Assembly (NCBI GenBank): GCA_943704415.1
Contig: CALSCO010001525.1
Location: forward strand, 1-39,440
Source: Parvularia atlantis
Lineage: Eukaryota
Length of the DNA: 39,440 bases
Direction of reading: 5' to 3'
Positions 14,963 through 31,450 of the stretch are shown here, one piece after another; the stretch's first letter is position 1, and the number at the start of each line of letters is the position of its first letter. Position numbers and translations under genes: made by a program. Under the pieces are notes generated by a model that was not told the DNA's origin, made no database searches, and saw only the letters and a list, made by a program, of their open reading frames with translations.

Positions 14963-17900
14963 TCAGCCGAGCAGGATCACGAGCTCCTTCGTGTGCTGCG
15001 CGATCGTGAACGCGAGGCCAGCCACGCCCTGGCTCTCGGGCCGCAGACCCTGTTGCACGGCCACGGTCAGCGCGCGTGGCCTCGCGACGCAGGCCCCGAG
15101 CACGCACGTCGCGGTCGACGTTCTGGCGGATCTCGAGCATTGACGCGATGACGGTCGCGAGCGACTGCAGGATCGCGTCGACGCGCGGGAGCACCTCAGG
15201 CGCGGGCGCCTGGCCGGGCGTGGTGAGGCTGTGCGAAATGACGTTCTTGAACCGGGTGATGGCGACGACGACCGAGTCGAGCGCCGTGATAAAGTCGCTG
15301 TCGGAGCGGGCCGTCTGGCACGCGCGCGCGGGTCAGCGGCGCATGCCATCGCCAGGGCCACCGCGCGCACCTTGAGCACGAGCAGCAGCGTCTGGATCGC
15401 CTGCACGATGACGTTGGTCTGCTGGTCCAGGAACGCCTTAAGGTCCTCGACCTGGCAGCGCGCGTCAGCACCTCGCCATTGCCATCGCATGCCGGCGCGC
15501 ACGAACCGCAAACTCGCTGCGCGCGGTCGACACGCCCGCATTGAGCTGCGACAGCAGCTTCATGACGACTTGCGAGAGCGCGGTCGACAGCGTCTCCATC
15601 TGGATCACCGACTCCTCCGTGAGGTGGCCGCCCGAGGCTTGCCCCTTGGCCAGCACGACGAGCTGCGTGAGCTTGTCCGAAATCTCGTTCTGCAGGCTGT
15701 TGAGCTTCTCGATCTGCTGCGGCTTGAGCTCGCCCTTGTGCTGGCGCTCAAACTCCTCCGCGTCGTCGAGGTGCTTGCGCACGGTCATCACTGCGCACGC
15801 ACGGTCAGACCACGCATCGCGAGTGCGCACGCACACGCGCCGCACCGATCGACTTCATTGCCAGGAGGATGTCGGCCGGCACCTGGCGCTGCACCGCGCC
15901 AAACAGCTCCTGGATGCCGTTGACGAGGTCCTTGATGGCCATGCCGTCGTCAAACACCATTTCCTGTTGCGCACGGAATGAGCACCGCGCAAGACACAGT
16001 GCAGCGCGGCGCACCTCGGTCACCGAGACCATGAAGCTCGTGTTGGTCGACTGGCGCGGGAGCGTGGCGACGCCGGCCATGCCCGCGCGCGACATTGTGC
16101 TCTGCACCATTGACGCGCGCGCGCTCGCCTTTGGCAGCGCGTGAGGTCACAGGCAGCGGTCGGCACGCGTGCGTGCGCACCTTGAGCGACGACACCTGCT
16201 CCTTGAGCGCGCGGACCTCCTCCTTTAGCGCCATGTTCTCGACCTGGATCTCGTTGCGCTCCATCTCGACGTTGTTCTTCTCGTCCAGTAGCGCGCGGGC
16301 CTCACGCGACTTGGCCTCGACCGCGTTCTCGTGCTGCAGCAGCATCGCCGACAGCTCCTCGACGATGGCCTTGTGCTTGGCCGAGCTGGCCTCGATGTCG
16401 CCGAGCAGCGCCTTTTTCTCCGCGGTGAGCTGGCGGTGGGCTGTCAGCTGCTGCACACCAGCGCGCAAACGTCTGCCGGCGCACTTCGCTCAGGAAGTCC
16501 TGCGCGTCACTCAGCTGCGTGTTGAGCGAGCGGATGCGCTCTTCGTCCTGCCGGACGGTCAGCTCGAGCAGCGCGACCTGCTGCAGCAGCTTCTCGTTCG
16601 CGGCCATCTGGCTGCGCAGCGCCTCTTCCGACTGCGGCCCCGTGAGCCTTGCCGCGCGGGACAACCACGCGCGCACCTTGTACTGCTCGGCCTCGTTTTG
16701 CCGCACCATGCGCAGCTCCTGCTCCAGGTTGGAGATCTGGCGCTCGTACACGGCGACCTTGCTGCTAAACTCGCTCTCGAGCGCGACGATCTTCTGCGCG
16801 TGCTTGGCCTGGGCCCGCGCGGCGGCGGCGGTGAGTGCGCGGCTGGTGATCGCGCGTACGCGTCGTGCCGGGCGCACGTTGAGCTGCGTCATCTCGGTCT
16901 GGTGCACCAGGCGCACGTTCTGGATCAGCTCCTCCGTGTGCACGGACGACTGCGCGGCCTCGACGAGGACCGACGCGGCCGAGCCGCGCTTCAGGTCAGG
17001 CACGGGCGAGGGCGGCACGGCCAGCCCGGCGGGCTTGGGCGGGAGGACGAGCGTGCGGTCGGGCGAGGCCGTCAACGGCGGCTGGATGAGTGTGTGCGTG
17101 CGCGAGCCGGCGGGCGAGATCATCGTGCCGAGGTCGGCCATGAGGTTGTCAAGTGAGTCAAAGTTGAGCGTGCTGTACTCGGTGTCAACCTCGGTCGCGG
17201 CGGTTGCTGTGGCGCGAGCACGCGTCACACGGCCATGTCGTGCAGCATGCCGCACAGCCGCCCGCACCGCTCTTGTCGCCCAACGGCCGTGGCGGCGCCG
17301 GCATGGTGACGTTGGATCCGCGCGTCTTGCTGCGTTGCGGGCGCGTGTCAAGGCAGCGCAAGCGCGCGTTAGGGCAGAGTGCGCGCACGTCAGCGCCTGC
17401 GCGACGATCGGCGCAGGCGGTGCGGGCGTGCGCTCCGGGTGCGCGGCCGCACGCGCGGCGCCTGCGCCGGCCGGGTGCGGGGGCAGCACGGCCACGCCGC
17501 CTGGAGGCGGCTGGAACGCGGCCGGCGGGCTGGACGAGAGCGCGGGTACGGGTACGGGGGCGACTGCGGCTGCGTGTGCGGGTGCGGCTGCGAGCGTGCC
17601 CTCGACGGCTGCGCGCGCGGCCGGGAAGCGGCGGCCGATCTCGACGTAGACGTCGCAGGCGAGCTCCTTGTACCTGTCGGGCGCGTCAGGCCGCAGGGTG
17701 CGCGCCGCACACGGACGCGCCTGTCATCCGGCAGCGTCGCGAGCTTCTGCCGCGCCTGGTTGCGCTTCGGGTGGAACAGGTCCTGCACGGGCAGGAACGG
17801 CATCGCCTCGCCGCCCTGGGCCGCCGCGCGCATGAGACGGCGCACGCTCGCGGCGCACGCACGCGCACCCGCAGCGCCACACGGCGTTTGAGCTCGTCAA

Positions 17901-18162
17901 ACACGTCCGTCGCGAGCTCGTTGAACTGCTGCTTGGACAGCTTCGTGAGCTTGTCGCTGCGGTGCGGTGCGGCGCGGCGCGGCGCGTGTTTGGCGTGCGT
18001 GCGATCGCGAACGCCGCGCGGGCGGCTGCCGCACCGCGCGAGCAGGCGCGCGTCGCCGACGCCCTTCTGCTTGACCTCGTCCAGGTACGCCGCGAGGTAC
18101 GCGTGCAGCTCGCGCAGCTGCGCCTCGGCCGCATCGTCCTCGCGCGAGCGCTTCGACGCCAT
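14963..18162 (-). CDS. SPA2: Spa2-type polarity scaffold (two Spa2-homology repeats, coiled coil, GIT/Spa2 C-terminal helical domain); no ArfGAP or ankyrin domain
   Basis: DKLTKLSKQQFNELATDVFDELKRR and PFLPVQDLFHPKRNQARQKLATLPDDR|YKELACDVYVEIGRRFP; C-terminus EDLKAFLDQQTNVIVQAIQTLL..AGLAFTIAQHTKELV. Confidence 0.85.
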
Positions 18163-18187
18163 CCGGGAGAGGAGGAAGAAGAAAGGG

Positions 18188-18196
18188 AAAAAAAAA
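18188..18196 (-). terminator. RNA polymerase III oligo(T) terminator of tRNA-Lys
   Basis: T9 on the minus strand, 12 nt after the tRNA 3' end. Confidence 0.8.
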
Positions 18197-18208
18197 TAAA
18201 CAAGCACT

Positions 18209-18315
18209 CTCCTCGTGTGGGGGTCGAACCCACGACCCCAGGATCGCCAAGCGGCCTGACGTCACGCGCCGCGCCAATAAAAGTCCTGTGCTCTAGCCGA
18301 CTGAGCTAACGAGGA
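18209..18315 (-). tRNA. tRNA-Lys(UUU) with a 33-nt intron (18277-18245) at position 37/38
   Basis: TCCTCGT-TA-GCTCAGTCGGCTAGAGC-A-CAGGA-CT TTT A[intron]A-TCCTG-GGGTC-GTGGG TTCGACC CCCAC-ACGAGGA-G; all stems pair; oligo-T terminator follows. Confidence 0.95.
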
Positions 18316-21834: not shown

Positions 21835-23354
21835 TTATCGTCGCACTGAGCTCGCCGTCGACGCCGTTCGCGTGACCTGTCGGCAGCGGGCATGAGCGCG
21901 CGCCCGGCCAGCCAGCCGCACGCACCCGTGGCAGCATCGCCGACGGCACGATGCCGCCGTCCCCGTTGATGCTCGCCTCGAAGCTGGTCGACAGCGGCGC
22001 GGTCGTCAGCAGGCTCTCGTACCTGCGCGTGGACGGCATCGGCCGCGGAGCAGGCACGGGGCGCGACGCGGGCGCTTGTGCGGGCGCCTGGGCGGGCGTG
22101 GCCGGCACGGAGAGGTCGTCGTCCGCCCCGTCCTCGCCCACAAAGGGCGTGCAGGCCGAGAGGAAGGCGTCGGTCGACGTGTGCGGGTACGACGCCTGGT
22201 GGTGCGACGCCATGCACAGCAGCCGCCGCCACAGGTCGACGTAGTTGTGCCTGAACGTGCGCGAAAGCGCCATGAACGCCTGGCGCGGGCGTGAGCGGCG
22301 CACACGAGAGAGCGAGCGAGTAAACGCGCGCGCACGACAAAGTTCAGGAAGCCCTGCAACGGGGCGAAAAAGGCAAAGATGATCGCGAGCGGGAAGGTCG
22401 TCTCGGGGTCCATCGTCACGTCGGCAAAGTCGCGCACGAGCGCGAGTACGGCGAGCACCTGCGCACGCTGGTGAGCCGCACCAAGCGCGTGCCGCGCCGG
22501 TATGTCGAGAGCGCACCAGGCTCCAGAACCAGCATAGGATGAACGAGACGACGATGCTCACGAAGATCCGCCGCCGGTCCTCCGAGATGCCGGAGAAGCG
22601 TGGCGTCAGCTTGGAGTAGTTTGCGAGCTTGCGGAACTCGCTGGCGCGCACGTCAAGCAGGAGGCACGCACAAAGGCGCGCCGCACCGGCGCAGCAGCAC
22701 GAGCAGCAGCACGTTGGTGCACCACGAGAAGAAGATCCAGCCGTCGAAGAAGACGATGCGCGCCCACGACGCCGTGAACCAGCACCCGACCTCGTGCTCG
22801 ATCACCGTCTCCGAGTACAGCCCGAGCCCGATCGGCACAGCCACGCACACGGCCGGGACGAGCGTGCACACGGCGAGGTAGCCGAGCTCGTACACGCGGC
22901 CGCGCGCCTCGTTCCGCCGCACCTCCTGCAGCATCGCGAGCCCGCTGGCCGCGCACGCGCGCACGTCAGATCACGGCGCGGGCGTTGTTGGCACGACGCA
23001 CATGCAGCAAGACCAGAAGAACGTGGAGACGTAGAAGAACGTCTGGGTGGCGCGCGGCGTGAGCGCATCGCAGCGGCGCCGCACCGCGCGCACCGAGAGC
23101 ACCGCGCCCGACACGCACAGCGGCACGGACGGGTCCGGCACGTTGGTGAACCATGCTGCCGAGCCGCCGAGCATGAACAGGCTCATGTACGTGACCAGTT
23201 TGAGGAAGAACGAGCGGTCACCGGGTACGAGCGCGTAGTACGCGATAAGGCTGAGCTCGCCCGCGATCGACAGGCTCGCCGACGTCCACATGAGCGGCAG
23301 GTACACGCTCGCGTACAGCGTCCAGCCGTCGTTTTCGGCGGACCCCCTTGCCAT
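21835..23354 (-). CDS. cAMP-receptor-like (CAR/GCR1/GPR157-type) G-protein-coupled receptor, multi-exon
   Basis: Seven hydrophobic segments: SASLSIAG, LKLVTYMSL, Cys before TM3 then FFYVSTFFWSCC, GCW in ECL2, FILCWFWS, PLQGFLNFV in TM7. Confidence 0.82.
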
Positions 23355-23488
23355 GCGACGGGTGTGGCGGCGATGAGCTGTGTCACAATGCTTTTCCCGG
23401 ACGAGCTGACGCGATCAGGAGGCCCGCGCGCCGGCCTCAAGAGGGCGGCCTGCGCCACGCGGCGCCGCACCGCGCACGTGCACGCACC

Positions 23489-24488
23489 ATGCTCTCGCTC
23501 AAGTGCGTGTTTGTCGGCGACGTGGGCGCGGGCAAGACGAGCCTGACCATGGTGCTGGTGCGGCGCCCCACAACACGCCCGGCGGCTGAAACCGCCGTCT
23601 CACGCGCGCGACGTGCAGAACGGCGCCCCGTTCGACCCGAACGCGTTCGTGCCCACCGTCGCGGACAACTGGGCGGTGATGCGCATGCACCGCGGCGTGC
23701 CCGCGCAGCTCGGGCTGTGGGACGTGAACGCCCGCGAGGAGTACGACCGCCTGCGCCCGCTCTCGTACCCGCAGACGGACGTGTTTGCGCTCTGCTTCGA
23801 CGTCACGCGGCCACACGCGCTGCAGCAGATCCGCGACAAGTGGCACCACGAGGTGCAGCACCACTGCCCGGGTGTGCCCGTCGTCCTCGTCGGCACCAAG
23901 AGCGACCTGCTCGAGTCTCAGGCCGACGCCGACGCCCTCGCCAGCGGCGCAGAGCGCGACCGAACGTGGGCCCTCGCTGCGGCCTGGCGCGAGCGCCAGC
24001 GCGAGATCGGCCGCCAGCACCTGCTGTGGCGCGTGCGCCACGTCTGGCCGCTGCTGCGCCACGTCAGCCCGCGCGTCCCGCCCAAGGACGGCCAGTGCCG
24101 CCTCGACGGCCTGTGCGACGAGCTCGTCCTGCACATCCTTGGCTATCTCGACACGCCCGACCTCGGCCGCGTGGCGCGCGTCAACCGGCGGCTGCGCGAG
24201 CTCGCCGGCGACCGCGCGCTTTGGCCCGCGTGGCGCTACAAGCGCGGGCAGGTCGCCGGGCGGATCAGCGAGATTACGCCGTACACCGTGCAGGAGGTCG
24301 CGCGGAAGATCGGCGCGCGCGCGACGGTCATCACCAGCGCGACGGAGCCGGCGCTGGTTGTCGAGACGCTCTCGACGGCGCTGCTCGACGCGACCATGGA
24401 CCACTCGCCGTCGATCCACCGCCTCACGCTGCAGAACAAGCGCGGCCCGCGGCTCGTGCGGCGTGTGCGACGTGCGCTGCGCCTGTGA
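23489..24488 (+). CDS. Atypical Rho/Rac-family GTPase with an internal F-box domain (312 aa, one intron 23558-23618)
   Basis: MLSLKCVFVGDVGAGKTSL; VPTVADN; LGLWDVNAREEYDRLRPLSYPQTDVFALCF; KWHHEVQHHCPGVPVVLVGTKSDL; F-box LDGLCDELVLHILGYLDTPDLGRVARVNRRLRELAGDRALW (24102-24224); the GTPase fold then resumes ITPYTVQEVARKIGARATVITSA. Confidence 0.88.
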
Positions 24489-24576: not shown

Positions 24577-26669
24577 TCACTCAAACTTGATGCCCTGCGC
24601 CAGCGGCAGCTTGCGCGAGTGGTTGATGACCCTGCGCGCGAGCACGGTCAGCACGGGTTATCTCGCGCGCGTGCGCACGCACACGGTGGACTGGCGGCAG
24701 TAGTACTTCCACGCGTCCGAGCCGCTCTCACGACCCCAGCCGGTCTCCTTGTTGCCGCCAAACGCGCCGCCGATCTCCGCGCCCGACGTGGCCTGGTTGA
24801 CCGAGACGATGCCGCAGTCGGAGCCGGCCGGCCTTGGGGCGTGCGCGCGTGCGGCGTGAGCGCAGACAGCGACAGCGACGGCCGCCGCGCCACGCACCCA
24901 ATCCAGCGAAAGATAGCCTCGGGGCTCTGCGTGAACAGCGCCGACGACAGGCCCTGCGCCACCTCGTTGTTCCAGGCGATGGCCCGGTCGAGCGAGCTGA
25001 ACTTCATCGTGTGCAGGATGGGCTGTGTGTGCGTCAGCGCCGCACGACGTCCGCCCACGCAGTGCCACGCACCACAAACGTCTCGCGGTGCACGAGCGGG
25101 CAGTCGTGCTCCATTTGCGTCAGTGTCGGGCGCACAAAGTTGCCCTTGCCCGGCAGGACCTCGCCGCCGCAGAGCACCTGGCCGCCCTGCTTGGGCACCT
25201 CGGCCACGGCCTTGGCGTACTCCTCGACCGCGCGCGGCGTGTGCAGCGGGCCGCAGAGCGTGCCGGGCGTGAGCGGGTCGCCGATGCGCACGGTGGCGTA
25301 GGCTTTCTTGAGCCGCTCGATCACGGTGTCGTACAGCTTCTCGTGGATCATCTAGGCGCGGGCACTGCCCGTCAGCCCGCAGCGAGCCGCCAGCGCCGCT
25401 CGCACGCGTGCACGCACCAGCCGGCGCGCCGACGTGCACCGCTGCCCGGCCGTACCGACGGCCGCGAAGAGCACGCTGCGCACGACCATGTCCACGTCGG
25501 CGTCGTCGTTGACGATGATGGCGTTGTTGCCGCCGAGCTCCATCAGAGCCTTGCCTGCGCCCGCGGTGAGCACGCACTGTGCACATGCCCCTCGCCACCC
25601 GCCGCGCACCAAACCGGCCCTGGACGGTCGTGGCCACCTGCCGGCCGACGTGCGTGCTGCGGGCACAAGGCGGGAGTCAACGACGACCACGGCCCGCGCC
25701 AGCGCCTGCGCACACACACCTGCCCGTGAATGACACGAGCGGGATGCGCTTGTCGCCCGCGATCGCCGCGCCGACGTCCGCGCCGCCCGTCACGAGCGAG
25801 CAGATGGCGCCGGGCAGGTTGTTGGCCTCGAGCACGCTCGCGAGGATCTTGGTCACGGCGACGCTGACCAGGTTCGTCGTCGGGGCGCCCTTCCTGCGAC
25901 ACACACGCACGCACGAACGCGCGCGTCAGCACGACCGGCCGCAGCCCGGCATGCGGGCAGGGGCGCGCACCAGAGCATGGTGTCGCCGCAGACGAGCGCG
26001 AGCGCGTTGTTCCAGCCGTAGACGGCCACGGGGAAGTTGAAGGCACTGATGACGCCGACGTGGCCGAGCGGGTGCCAGCGCTCCATCATCGTGTGCTCCT
26101 CGCGCTCGGACGGGATCACCTTGCCGTTGAGCATGCGGCTAAGGCCGGCGGCGTAGTCGGCGATGTCGATGTACTCCTGCACCTCACCCAGGCCCTCGGG
26201 CTCGATCTTGCCCATCTCGAGCGACACGAGCCGGCCGAGGGCCGTCTTGCGCGCGCGCAGGGCGTCGCCAATCTGCCGCACGACCTCGCCGCGCTGCGGC
26301 GCCGGCATCGCGGCCCAGCGCGCGCGCGCGGCCTCCATCGCCTGCACGGTCTCGTCGTAGTCGGCCAGCGAGCCGGTTGTGACGGCGGCGATGGGCTCGT
26401 GCGTGGCCGGGTTGACCGAGACCACGCGCGGGCCGCGCCCGCCCCACCGGCCGTTGTACACGCCCGCGTTCTCACGCTCGAGGCCGAGCTCGCGCAGGAA
26501 CGGGTACTTGTCGAACGCGAGCTGCGGCCGCGGCGCAGCACGGGCGAGGTGCGACGCGTGAGACGTAGCGCAGCGACAACGTGTGAGGCGCACGCACCTC
26601 CGACGCCGCCGTCGACAGGCAGCGCGCGCCGCCGCGCCGCGTGGCAAACCGCGCCGAGGCGAGCAGCAT
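24577..26669 (-). CDS. ALDH7A1: Aldehyde dehydrogenase family 7 (antiquitin, alpha-aminoadipic semialdehyde dehydrogenase) with mitochondrial presequence
   Basis: [104 protein letters not shown]. Confidence 0.96.
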
Positions 26670-26702
26670 GGTTCGAGTTTCGAAGAGTGTGACGGGCGCG
26701 TG

Positions 26703-29447
26703 ATGCGGGCGCTGGCCATCATGGCCGCGTGCTGTGTCGCGGCGGCCGCAACGCCGCCGCCGCACCAGCAGCACCACCAGCCGCCCGCGCCGCCACTGCA
26801 GCCGCTGCGCCGCGTGACCGTGCCCGTGCGGCTCAACGTCGTGCTCGTGGGCTTCGAGAGCGCGCTCGCGGACCAGGCGCTGCTCGCGCCGTACCTCGAG
26901 GACGTCGAGACGCGCCTGCCGCACGCCTTTGTCGACGGCGGGGCGTCGGACGCGGTCGAGTACGCCTACGCGGTGCACGTGGTGCCACTCAGCCACACCG
27001 TCACGAAGCTGTTCGAGGCCGTCATCTCGACCTTTGTGCGCGCCGACAACGCGACGGCGTCGGGCGCGCATTACCAGGTCGACGTCGACCGCATCCTGCC
27101 CGTGGCCGAGTCGCTCGTGCACCGCCTGGGCCTGCACGACGCCTACACGCTCCTGCTCCTCAACTGCCCCAAGGGCCTGCGCGCCGACCTGCGCTACGGC
27201 TACCGCGCGGGCTTCTCGGCCGACGAGCTGCGACAGATCGCGACTTCGGACGACCTGCGCAAGATTGTGCTGCAGATCAACACCGCCGCCGACAAGAACC
27301 GGCCCGGCGGCCCGGGCGGCCCGGGCGACGCCGGCGGCATGCCTGCGCACGACGAGGACGCCGAGGCCGCCCTGCCCGACGAGGCGTCGCGTCCGCTCCC
27401 GCGCGGACCCGGCGTCGTGTTTGAGGACATGGTGGCGCAGGCCGACGCGTGGGCGCGCGCGTTCCTCGCCGAGACGCGCCAGCTGCTCGCGCGCCAGGAT
27501 GCGCCCGGAAACGTGCCCGCGGAGGACTGCGCGCGGCCGATGACGGTGCTGCTGCAGGACCCGGACGGCGACCACAGCCATGCCGTCAACATGAAGCCCG
27601 CGCTCACGCTGGCCGAGGCCGCCGAGGCCGCCATCGCCGTCGGCCATCCGAGCGACGCCGCGGCGCTGCGCCTGGCCGCGCAGGGCGGCGTGGTGCACGC
27701 GGGCTGCGTCGTCGGCAGCTGGGTCGGCCACGGCCGAACGGCGTTCATCGACCTGGCCGCGGGCCCGTTCTCGTGGGGCACGACGGCCACGGGCAAGGGC
27801 GCGCTCGTCGACACGGCCGCGGTGTACCCGGGCGCGCGCGACACGGTGGCGCAGGCGACGCGGCGGTACCGGACGCGCGCGCTGCTGCAGGCCGGCGACA
27901 CGGACGACGACACGTTTGACGACGGCGGAGCGAGCGCGGACGCGGGGCGCAGCCGCAGCATCGACGCCGAGCTGCGCATCTACGAGGCCTTCCTCGCGCG
28001 CAATTGCGATCCTGAGAACCTGCCGCAGGGCGAGGCGGGGCAGCGGCTGACGCGCGCGTGCGAGGAGACGCGCGTGCGCATGGCGCGGCTCGAGGCGCGC
28101 CGGGCCGAGCGGCCAGTGGCGCCAGGGGGCGGGCTGCTGTCGGACGTGGTCGAGGAGGAGGAGGCGCCGGCGGGTGCAGCGGACGCGGACGCGCCCGAGC
28201 GGTATCCGCCGGCGGCGTACGAGGAGTTTGGCGCGCGGCTGGGCAGCGTCATCTCGCGCACGCTGCGCACGCTCGTGACGCCCCCGACGGCGCGGTCGTC
28301 GCTGGACCTGCGCGGCCTGGCCAAGCGCGTGTCGTTCCGGGTCGTGGTCGTGACCAACCACCACAAGGCGTACCGGCACCTGGGCGCGGCCGCGGGCGGA
28401 TTTGACTATGACCTGTTCCGGACGGAGATGGACAAGCTCTGCCTGCCGGGCCACGCGTTTGCGTACACGCTGCAGGAGGTCGCGCTGACGGACGAGTCGC
28501 GGCTGGCGATGGTCTACTGGGACGCGCTGCACACGGCCGTCACTGGCGCAGGCGGGCAGGGCACGCGGATGTACCTCGACTCGGAGCACTTGCACCGGCA
28601 GCTCCTGGGCGACGACGGCGTGACTGAGGCCTCGGTCACGCCCGACGGGCTCCTGTCGCGCGTGCTCGTGTTCATCTTCGTGGTCGACTACGAGTTGCCG
28701 GTGCTGATCGACCTGTACCAGCAGGCGGCCGTGATCGACAACGCCGTCGTGGCCGTGCAGCACGGCCTGCAGACGTTCCGCACGCGCGACCAGTGCAACG
28801 GCCAGCCCGTCGCCGTTAGCCTGCGCAACCCGACCAAGGCCGTCATCGCCGCCGCGGCCGAGATCGTCGGCGGGCTCGCGGCCCCGCGCGACCGCCTGTG
28901 GTCGGTCGGCGCCGCGCCACTGCAGGCCACGTCGCCACGCGCGCGGCACGGCGCGTTTGACGTCGACACGGCGCACCGGCACTGGCTCACCGTGCGCATG
29001 GACCGGATCAAAGGCGCGCTCGACACGGTGCTGGCGCGGCTGCGCGGCGAGACGTCGGTGCACGTGGCGCGCGAGGTGGAGACGCTGCGTGCGACGTACA
29101 GCGAGGTTGTGCGGGTGCTCGAGGCCGTGGGCGACCACGCGGCGCTGATGGACTATCGGACCGTGTTCCGCCTGCTGTCGACGGCCGAGGACGACGTGCG
29201 GGTGCTGTTCAACGTGACGGCGGCGATGGGCGCGGTGCAGCACGAGGCGCACTGCCGGCACGAGGTCGACCCGGACGAGCAGGCCGCGCAGACCGTGCGC
29301 CTGCTCACGACCATCCTCACGCTCGGGCTCGTCAACGCCGTGCTGCTGCTCGTCTACTACCTGTGCACGTACGCGGGCCCGCTCCCGGCCGCCGTGCGCG
29401 CGACGATGCCCGAGGTGCTGCGGCCGAGCAAGGTGAAGATCAACTGA
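26703..29447 (+). CDS. Intronless 914-aa type I membrane protein of an uncharacterised eukaryotic family (resembles Arabidopsis At4g16180/At5g58100-type proteins)
   Basis: Signal peptide; [56 protein letters not shown]-terminal TM helix; ends RPSKVKIN* (KxKxx). Family call is from memory of the motifs. Confidence 0.7.
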
Positions 29448-29597: not shown

Positions 29598-29669
29598 TGG
29601 AGGTGAGGGGGATCGAACCCCTGGCCCTTCGTATGCAAAACGAAAGCGCTACCACTGCGCCACGCCCCC
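29598..29669 (-). tRNA. tRNA-Ala(UGC)
   Basis: GGGGGCG-TG-GCGCAGTGGTAGCGC-T-TTCGT-TT TGC AT-ACGAA-GGGCC-AGGGG TTCGATC CCCCT-CACCTCC-A; G3:U70 Ala identity pair; T6 terminator at 29592-29587. Confidence 0.93.
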
Positions 29670-29777: not shown

Positions 29778-31304
29778 CTAGAACACAGTGCCGAGCGCGT
29801 CAAACCATGCCGTGACGGTCGGGTCGACCAGGGCGACGCGGCGGAAGGCGTCGAATGAGATGCGCCCCGTGCCGTCCGGGTCGGCCGCGCGGAAGGCTGC
29901 CGCCGCGCGTGCAGGTCAGCGGCGAGCGAGCTGCAAACGCGAGCAACAAAAAAACGCACTGCGCTGCACGAGCTCGCCGATGGCCTCGTCCGACAGGGCC
30001 TCGATTACGGGCTGGATCTGCTGCGGCGTCGGCCAGCGCAGGCTCGCACCGCCCGCGCTCGACGTGTCGCTCCCGCTGGCGCCGCTGCTCCCGCCACCGC
30101 TGCTCCCGCTGCTCGCGGCCGGCGAGGGCGGTGCGGGCGGCGTGCTCTTGCTCCGCCCGTCCTCGGCCGGGATGGCCGCCGAGAACGCGGCCGAGACGGG
30201 CTTGTCGCCCTCGGGGTTGTAGCGCTGTACCATGTCGTCCTGCAGCGCCCGGGCTACGTCGCGGATGAGCTCGAGCGAGAGCTGGAAGTACGCGCGGAAC
30301 ATCTTCTCGAGGTCGCCCGCGCTGATGAAGCCGTCGCCGTCGAGGTCGTAGCCCTTGAAGATGTCTGCGCGCGCGCGCGCGCGCGCACGCGCCTGCTCAG
30401 CCCCGCGTGCCCGTTCGCCCCCGCACGAGCCGCACGTACACGTCATCTTTTCGTCCTGCGAGCCCTTGCACAGGATCGACAGGCCGCACACCAGCTCGGA
30501 GAAGTTGATCAGGCCGTCGCCGTCCTGGTCAAAGAAGCTGAAGATGCGCTCGGTGATCAGGTTGCGCTCGAGCCCGAGCGGTCCCAGGCACTGCTCAAAG
30601 ACGCGCCAGCTGATGCCTGCGCCGCCGGGCGCGTTCGGGTCGCACAGGGCGCGGAACTGGTCATGCAGGGCCTCGAGCTCGACGTGGTCAAAGTGCGTGC
30701 GCCGCTGCAGCTCGCGCAGGTCGTCCCAGCTGAGCGCGGCGTCGTTCGGCGAGCGGCCCGCGCCCGGGTAGAGCACAGGCGCGAGCGGCGTGCGCGGGTT
30801 GGCGAGGGGCGGGACGGGCACGCGGATCTTGACGAAGACGTGCGTGCGCGGCACGTGCGGCTCGGCGGCCTCGCACGCCTCGCACAGGTCGTAGTCGACG
30901 CAGTTGGCGCACTTGTACCGCACGCCACGCAGGGGCGACGTGTTGCAGTGGTTGCAGGTCACGCCCCGGTGCACGTAGCCCTCGCGCCGCGCCTGGTCCT
31001 CCGCGATCGAGTACAGCAGGTTGAGCAGGTGCTGGCTCTCCTTGCCCCTGCCCGCGGGCGGCGGCGCCGGCAGGCTCGCGGTCGCCAGGGCCGGCGCCGA
31101 CGCCGACGCCTCTTGGTCGGCCGAAGCCGAGCGCGCCGCGCCGCCGTCGCGGTGCCGCCTGCTCCGTCTGCGGCTGGGTGCCGCGAGCCCCGCGGCCTGC
31201 GCGGCCGCCGTGAGCGCGTGCTGCTGGTACAGGGTGGCCGAGAGTGACGCCACGGCCACGGCGACGCCGGCGAACGCGAGCGTCACCCAACCCTGGTCGC
31301 TCAT
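29778..31304 (-). CDS. N-terminally anchored ZZ zinc finger + EF-hand (frequenin/CBL-like) protein, 3 exons
   Basis: TM WVTLAFAGVAVAVASL; LLNLLYSIAEDQARREGYVHRGVTCNHC..RYKCANCVDYDLCEAC..THVFVKIRVP; EF hands FDQDGDGLINFSE, YDLDGDGFISAGD, ADPDGTGRISFDA. Confidence 0.9.
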
Positions 31305-31450
31305 CCGCGCCTTGGGTAATCCTGCGGCTGCACCTCTGGTGCAACACACCGCCGGCGTGGCGTGGCGCCGTGTCAGTCGTCGAGCGAGCGGGCGATTGGG
31401 CACGCTCATCACCCGCCGCCGACCAAGCTCACAAAGACACACAGCTTTTT

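Follow-up and report, generated by a model that had tools for sequence, protein, structure and literature searches.

The stretch of Parvularia atlantis DNA analysed here (39,440 nt in all; hereafter the window) carries, on its forward strand, a two-exon gene of 312 codons with an intact reading frame, which is spliced, expressed, and encodes a Rac-type protein with a nested F-box, referred to below as the Rho-F-box protein. Exon 1 (23489..23557, +; residues 1-23) encodes beta1, the P-loop and alpha1, and is spanned by an RNA contig, record 6 of run X2. It is followed by a GT..AG intron of 61 nt (23558..23618, +), the joint of which is found in an X2 contig at depth 39 and is absent from the DNA run X1, and by exon 2 (23619..24488, +; residues 24-312 and the stop), over which X2 contigs extend from 23618 to 24334. 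Transcript coverage of the gene as a whole runs over 23398-24334 except the intron, with a single difference from the window, a synonymous GAC to GAT change at 23837. X2 was taken to be RNA by guess, and it does act like RNA, in that its contigs skip introns that X1 retains, namely that of the Rho-F-box gene and six CT..AC introns of the adjoining aldehyde dehydrogenase gene; X1 may be the source sample itself, and is hence not independent. The end of the gene (24335-24488), where X2 contigs have stopped, is known from the DNA and from homology to seven relatives. No alternative letter occurs at the substituted codons discussed below in either run, and because both agree with the window these substitutions are not sequencing errors; the same contigs rule out a frameshift or a wrong model of exon 1. 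Third-position GC is 0.949, against 0.967 and 0.951 in two neighbouring genes and an intron GC of 0.754, and no second copy of the gene is present within the 39,440-nt window.

The Rho-F-box gene lies head-to-head with an expressed multi-exon membrane protein gene (~21900-23355, -), their starts ~130 bases apart, whose product gives a weak, sub-threshold match to 7tm_2 (E 0.018) and is possibly a GPCR. On the other side is the aldehyde dehydrogenase gene (~24580-26650, -), with its six introns confirmed by X2 and a transcript contig that extends to 24522 and comes within 34 bases of the Rho-F-box stop. Elsewhere the window holds a tRNA-Ala (TGC) gene (29598-29669, -); Spa2-homology (GIT_SHD) and VBS_C3G9 matches (15468-18261, -), perhaps within a single polarity-scaffold gene; an intronless frame of ~916 codons with a DUF7906 match and a likely C-terminal membrane segment (26697-29444, +); and a ZZ-type zinc finger followed by EF-hand-like motifs, recognized by eye (~29800-31310, -).

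The best PDB matches of the Rho-F-box protein are to Rac1 (E 1.5e-33), with Rac and Cdc42 nearest, and residues are numbered here as in Rac1. The G1/P-loop reads GDVGAGKT (23516..23539, +), with G12V (23522-23524), A13G and V14A, and with G10, G15, K16 and T17 kept. A one-residue insertion follows F28, and switch I/G2 reads FVPTVADNW (23646..23672, +), with Y32F, F37A and Y40W around a retained T35. The G3/switch II motif, WDVNAREEY (23718..23744, +), keeps W56 and D57 and carries T58V, A59N, G60A, Q61R and D63E, while the switch II helix and the residues beyond it, YDRLRPLSYPQTDVF (23742..23785, +), are the same as in Rac1, with conserved columns 64 to 72 unaltered. The G4 motif GTKSD (23892..23906, +) keeps K116 and D118. 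F28, S158 and A159 are retained as well; overall, G1, G2, G4 and G5 are intact and G3 is degenerate. A sequence-only reading of this DNA had named Val12, Ala37, Trp40, Ala60 and Arg61, and had proposed alignment to Rac1 as a check; that alignment, to PDB Rac1 and Rac-like proteins, bears out every named residue, and shows the list to be incomplete by A13G, V14A, Y32F, T58V, A59N, D63E and the insertion after F28. The DNA encoding the switch II helix also stands out in X1, as a 44-nt contig (23742-23785) at about double depth (500 vs 250), and other contigs match there and from 23874 onward, which probably reflects a Rac paralogue elsewhere in the genome with identical DNA over switch II, through codon bias or gene conversion.

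Relative to the consensus of 46 non-family rows, all six hydrolysis-site positions are altered in the Rho-F-box protein, and none of 11 nucleotide-binding positions; as these classes were drawn after the alignment had been seen, the contrast is a description and not a blind test, and its Fisher p of 8e-5 is inflated. The same site classes are altered at 8/29 (hydrolysis) and 6/53 (binding) positions in five relatives, and among the other conserved columns the Rho-F-box protein differs at 4/18 in the switches and 8/32 in the core. The substitutions exceed the Rho background. Among 120 listed matches, 110 of the 114 that could be scored keep G12, and the residue is kept at G60 in 119/120, Q61 in 118/120, F37 in 119/120 and Y40 in all 120; among 145 more divergent matches listed from 1.84 billion representatives, the corresponding counts are 86/100 for G12, 135/141 for G60 and 125/143 for Q61. 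Positions 12 and 61 are both altered in nine of 214 scorable Rho proteins that were fetched.

Between G4 and G5, where Rho proteins carry an insert of 10-15 residues, the Rho-F-box protein has an insertion of 121 residues (23913..24275, +) composed of a family-specific helical segment and an F-box (24105..24224, +). Pfam places Ras at residues 9-101 of exon 2 and an F-box at 163-202, above cut-off for both F-box-like PF12937 (E 1.6e-10; 41 bits vs 24.3) and F-box PF00646 (E 3.2e-7; 30.4 bits vs 20.5), and the top PDB match of the F-box is that of Skp2 (E 1e-3). It begins Leu-Cys, the Cys (24114-24116) replacing the Pro found in the Skp2 and Fbw7 alignments and in all seven relatives. The insertion matches every one of these relatives (blastp E 4e-23 to 5e-16, in a database of eight sequences), and its 61 residues ahead of the F-box match six of them. 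The G domain then resumes with alpha4, beta6, G5 (TSAT, with S158 and A159 kept) and alpha5 (24276..24401, +), as indicated by DSSP on a model of exon 2 (H224-231, E235-240, H244-261) and by superposition, alpha5 being divergent at its start. Residues 12-260 of that model, which is weak (pLDDT 58.8, pTM 0.39) and lacks the P-loop, superpose on Rac1 35-177 (Z 13.6, rmsd 2.9, 137 aligned), and residues 2-276 of a full-length model of the relative P0131 (pLDDT 69.8) on Rac1 2-178 (Z 19.4, rmsd 2.6, 160 aligned). The return to G-domain elements after the F-box, together with these superpositions, therefore places the F-box at the Rho-insert position, and a complete Rac fold is predicted by the models to close around it; the Rho insert, it follows, can hold a domain of ~120 residues. 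No BTB domain was found by Pfam (E 0.1), and the frame stops 35-40 residues past alpha5.

At least seven relatives share the nested F-box (P0127, P0130, P0131, P0136, P0279, P0280 and P0281). When 1.84 billion representatives were searched, P0127, P0130, P0131 and P0136 matched both domains among the 150 matches listed, Pfam having been applied to 40 of these, and a profile centred on the insert added P0280, P0281 and P0279, a C-terminal fragment. In a metagenome scan, L001 represents the P0130 gene, and L002 and L003 the P0281 gene, for which a six-exon model was built in this analysis. The number of relatives is a lower bound, each of two alignment searches having scored ~8000 candidates; a final homologue search found no further member among the 120 matches listed, mostly Rac, and no relative was found in viral contigs (nine pattern matches, none confirmed). 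The relatives share 24-44% identity across the G domain, which is too distant for dN/dS. Position 12 is G, G, S and K in the four relatives in which it can be read, and is obscured by an intron in P0127 and L001; position 61 is Q, Q, Q, H and L, and G3 cannot be aligned in L002. G12, G60 and Q61 are all retained in P0131 and P0136, and Q61 is replaced in L001 and P0280. In L002 (1752-2998; the same gene in L003), which is AT-rich and has six exons, switch I and G3 have collapsed with no DxxG, and G1, G4, the F-box and the basic tail are still present. Because P0131 and P0136 keep the full catalytic trio, a dead switch is dispensable for whatever the family does.

In a G-domain tree of 141 columns, from which L002, 17 near-redundant Rac rows and the fragment P0279 were left out, five relatives form one clade (99/92) and the Rho-F-box protein falls outside it, as sister to the Rho-BTB protein P0138 (86/88) on a long end branch (1.04-1.09). 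It stays outside when 10 motif columns are dropped; a constraint tree that holds all six members together is not rejected (p-AU 0.465), and a branch with the family and 10 Rho-BTB rows on one side has support of only 30/75. Since the G-domain columns place the protein elsewhere, its family membership rests on the insert. Other Rho fusions occur among the matches (P0159, P0187, P0198, P0227, P0224, P0214, P0207), comprising Rho-U-box(-BTB), Rho-RING-BTB, Rho-BTB-Kelch, N-terminal F-box-Rho with a CAAX box, and Rho-WD40 types; fusion of Rho domains with ubiquitin-ligase modules has occurred repeatedly.

The absence of a CAAX box and the polybasic C-terminus, both noted in the sequence-only reading, are evident in the finished gene model. 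No prenylation Cys lies in the last 20 residues of the Rho-F-box protein or of its seven relatives, and the last 16 residues carry a net charge of +4 to +8 in all eight members; by comparison, a C-terminal CAAX is present in 90 of 92 complete short proteins of the 120-match set and in 9/26 divergent representatives. In the Rho-F-box protein this tail (24438..24485, +), which has a net charge of +8 and lacks Cys, forms a predicted basic amphipathic helix (residues 275-288 of the model), with a hydrophobic moment equalled by one of 2000 shuffles; amphipathicity is significant in two of the eight members, this one and P0131 (p 0.018), and in none of the other six. As all eight lack CAAX and have a basic tail, CAAX loss is a family-wide trait. 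Treating it as one event with the catalytic changes conflates two distributions, given that full collapse is confined to this copy and L002. The related claim of no lipid anchor stands insofar as the prenylation Cys is missing; the basic amphipathic helix may nonetheless anchor the protein to the membrane, much as the amphipathic helix of Rit can stand in for the CAAX of Cdc42 (PMC4383620). A hidden CAAX exon was also considered, and four hypothetical 3' splices do yield CxxX; such an exon was judged implausible because all four acceptors fall in antisense coding DNA of the neighbouring gene.

The residue pattern bears directly on whether the G domain still hydrolyses GTP. G12, A59, G60 and Q61 are all altered, and as G12V and Q61L are hydrolysis-defective in Rac and Cdc42 (PMC6678527), the GTPase deficiency proposed in the sequence-only reading is likely. 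The G domain likely still binds guanine nucleotide, as its intact binding motifs suggest. Could the protein then be an always-on bait, locked in the GTP form like Rac G12V/Q61L, that hands a shifted set of effectors to SCF? Its changes at G12 and Q61 are the classic activating lesions (PMC13236570, PMC6678527), T35, D38 and the switch II helix are retained, Y40W is conservative, and changes at F37 cut PAK and WASP affinity only slightly (PMC6678527). The likeness to activated mutants nevertheless breaks down at G60A and Y32F, which in H-Ras favour the open, non-signalling state 1, impair the GTPase and leave effector binding weak (PMC4867591); G60A-GTP Ras, moreover, resembles Sos-bound Ras, binds Raf poorly, and reverts activated Ras (PMC7067412). 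This evidence comes from H-Ras single mutants, here combined in a Rac scaffold, and suggests a likely state that is nucleotide-bound, hydrolysis-dead and open, but not 'on'. Nor does an altered effector range fit readily: in Rac, residue 37 controls lamellipodia and residue 40 controls CRIB binding (PMC6678527), and changes at both strike both classic effector classes, which argues for loss of binding and not a shift, with the proviso that Y40C, the change actually tested, is more severe than Y40W. We accordingly regard a constitutively active bait as unlikely. The loss of Gly12 with a changed G3/Gln61 that is a feature of class ii pseudoGTPases is present here as V12, N59, A60 and R61, and we infer that the Rho-F-box protein belongs to that class, and is not an activated Rac; the combination of G12V and Q61R in a sequence need not signify 'activated'.

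We give roughly an even chance to the reading that the protein is a substrate receptor of an SCF (Skp1-Cul1) ligase, whose hydrolysis-dead G domain takes a Rac-network protein at the membrane. The Rho insert sits away from the switches, and the nested F-box would dock on Skp1 on the insert side of the domain, so that the switch side stays accessible. G12V, A59N, G60A and Q61R would halt hydrolysis, G60A and Y32F would keep the domain in an open, non-signalling shape, and F37A and Y40W would abolish ordinary effector binding. W56 and the switch II helix are intact and make up the surface that GEFs contact; they would then bind a Rac-network protein for ubiquitination, most plausibly a RhoGEF, a choice of substrate that is guesswork. 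The basic helix would hold the protein on acidic membranes independently of prenylation or GDI, and its level could be governed by its rate of synthesis and by its own ubiquitination, a mode of control proposed for RhoBTB, a CAAX-less, G12-substituted and GTP-binding Rho protein that serves as a Cul3 adaptor and for which self-turnover has been suggested (PMC4931677). The replacement of the F-box Pro by Cys in this copy alone weighs against an SCF receptor. A bolder form of this reading, to which we give a low probability, is that of a natural 'dominant-negative' Rac, in which the open G60A-type shape and W56/switch II capture RhoGEFs at the membrane for the nested F-box to deliver to SCF; if so, the Rho-F-box protein would stand at the switch-dead extreme of a hitherto undescribed family, the other members of which are GTP-gated SCF receptors.

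A quite improbable alternative is that the copy is relaxed or partly decayed, its G domain a mere scaffold or its F-box devoid of Skp1 binding, leaving a decoy or a drifting gene. The long end branch, the Pro to Cys change and the divergent alpha5 could be taken in its favour, and L002 shows that collapse of switch II is tolerated in the family. Decay of this kind had been raised at the outset as a possible refutation, and several features argue against it: the frame is intact, spliced and expressed, GC3 is like that of the two neighbours, none of the 11 binding positions is altered, the F-box exceeds Pfam cut-offs, and core divergence is no higher than that of five relatives (8-11 of 28-32 columns). 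GAPs can supply a catalytic residue in trans, as they do for Rap and Rab proteins. That the Rho-F-box protein still cycles in this manner, slowly alone and with a dedicated GAP, so that nucleotide state gates capture, is very unlikely given four adjacent G3 changes (58-61, G60 among them) and a branched residue at position 12, even though every binding motif is kept, P0131 and P0136 have the full catalytic set and are probably cycling, and class iii pseudoGTPases are active despite divergent motifs (PMC5593906).

GTPase-deficient Rho proteins and classes of pseudoGTPase are established (PMC13236570, PMC5593906; general background in PMC7600811, PMC5869587, PMC9101129), and among the closest parallels to the Rho-F-box protein are RhoBTB1/2 and Dictyostelium RacA, which likewise join a Rho domain to a cullin adaptor and lack CAAX (PMC4931677, PMC8305917). 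They further share a replaced G12 (Asn in RhoBTB1/2), an altered G3, a longer Rho insert and retained GTP binding; in contrast, they carry a BTB tandem after the G domain, work with Cul3 and are ~700 aa long, whereas here a single F-box lies inside the G domain of a 312-aa protein and Cul1 is the presumed partner. In amoebozoan Rho proteins the insert is reported to be of typical length or shorter (PMC8305917). Naegleria has fusions of F-boxes with Rho, Rab, Ran and G-alpha, for which GTPase-dependent ubiquitination was proposed (Herman et al. 2021, PMC8296547); for an F-box nested in the GTPase domain, that paper names G-alpha. Its Rac rows differ from our protein, in that the F-box precedes the G domain, by eye, in the eight rows with a printed sequence, of which the five uncut ones end in CxxX, six further rows being without sequence (PMC8296547). 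P0214, an N-terminal F-box-Rho protein, matches the insert over the F-box only (E 0.001) and falls outside the family in the tree. Fusions of an F-box with ARF have also been catalogued (bioRxiv 2020.10.31.363457). In literature searches that covered subscription journals thinly, we found no title or abstract reporting a Rho domain with an F-box nested inside it.

By features, the nearest Atlas clusters are Rab40 and FBXO4 (scores 0.75-0.80, to be read as leads only, with all Atlas matches <0.9), and Pfam Arf occurs in 65% of the members of one FBXO4-like cluster. Both Rab40 (Ras with a SOCS box) and FBXO4, the substrate domain of which is reportedly GTPase-like, tie a small-GTPase fold to a cullin adaptor, but the adaptor is terminal and not nested as in the Rho-F-box protein. 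Rnd1-3 and RhoH also lack Gly12, have a changed G3/switch II, and are presumed GTP-bound and GAP-insensitive (PMC13236570, PMC5593906); unlike the Rho-F-box protein they carry no ligase module, retain CAAX (Rnd), and are active signalling proteins, whereas G60A, Y32F and F37A point here to a non-signalling shape. H-Ras G60A and Y32F are equivalent substitutions, but engineered one at a time in Ras (PMC4867591, PMC7067412); here they are natural, occur together with G12V and Q61R, and lie in a Rac scaffold. Links between small GTPases and cullin ligases are known from RhoBTB, Rab40 and the Naegleria F-box fusions. The family offers a natural series in a scaffold of 280-345 aa, from the intact P0131 and P0136, through L001 and P0280 with Q61 replaced and the present protein with its degenerate G3, to the collapsed L002, and comparing its members would test directly whether substrate capture depends on nucleotide state. 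Set against these known systems, the substitutions by themselves are of a familiar kind; what sets this gene apart is the family with its nested F-box, the graded loss of the switch across that family, and the apparent non-signalling signature.
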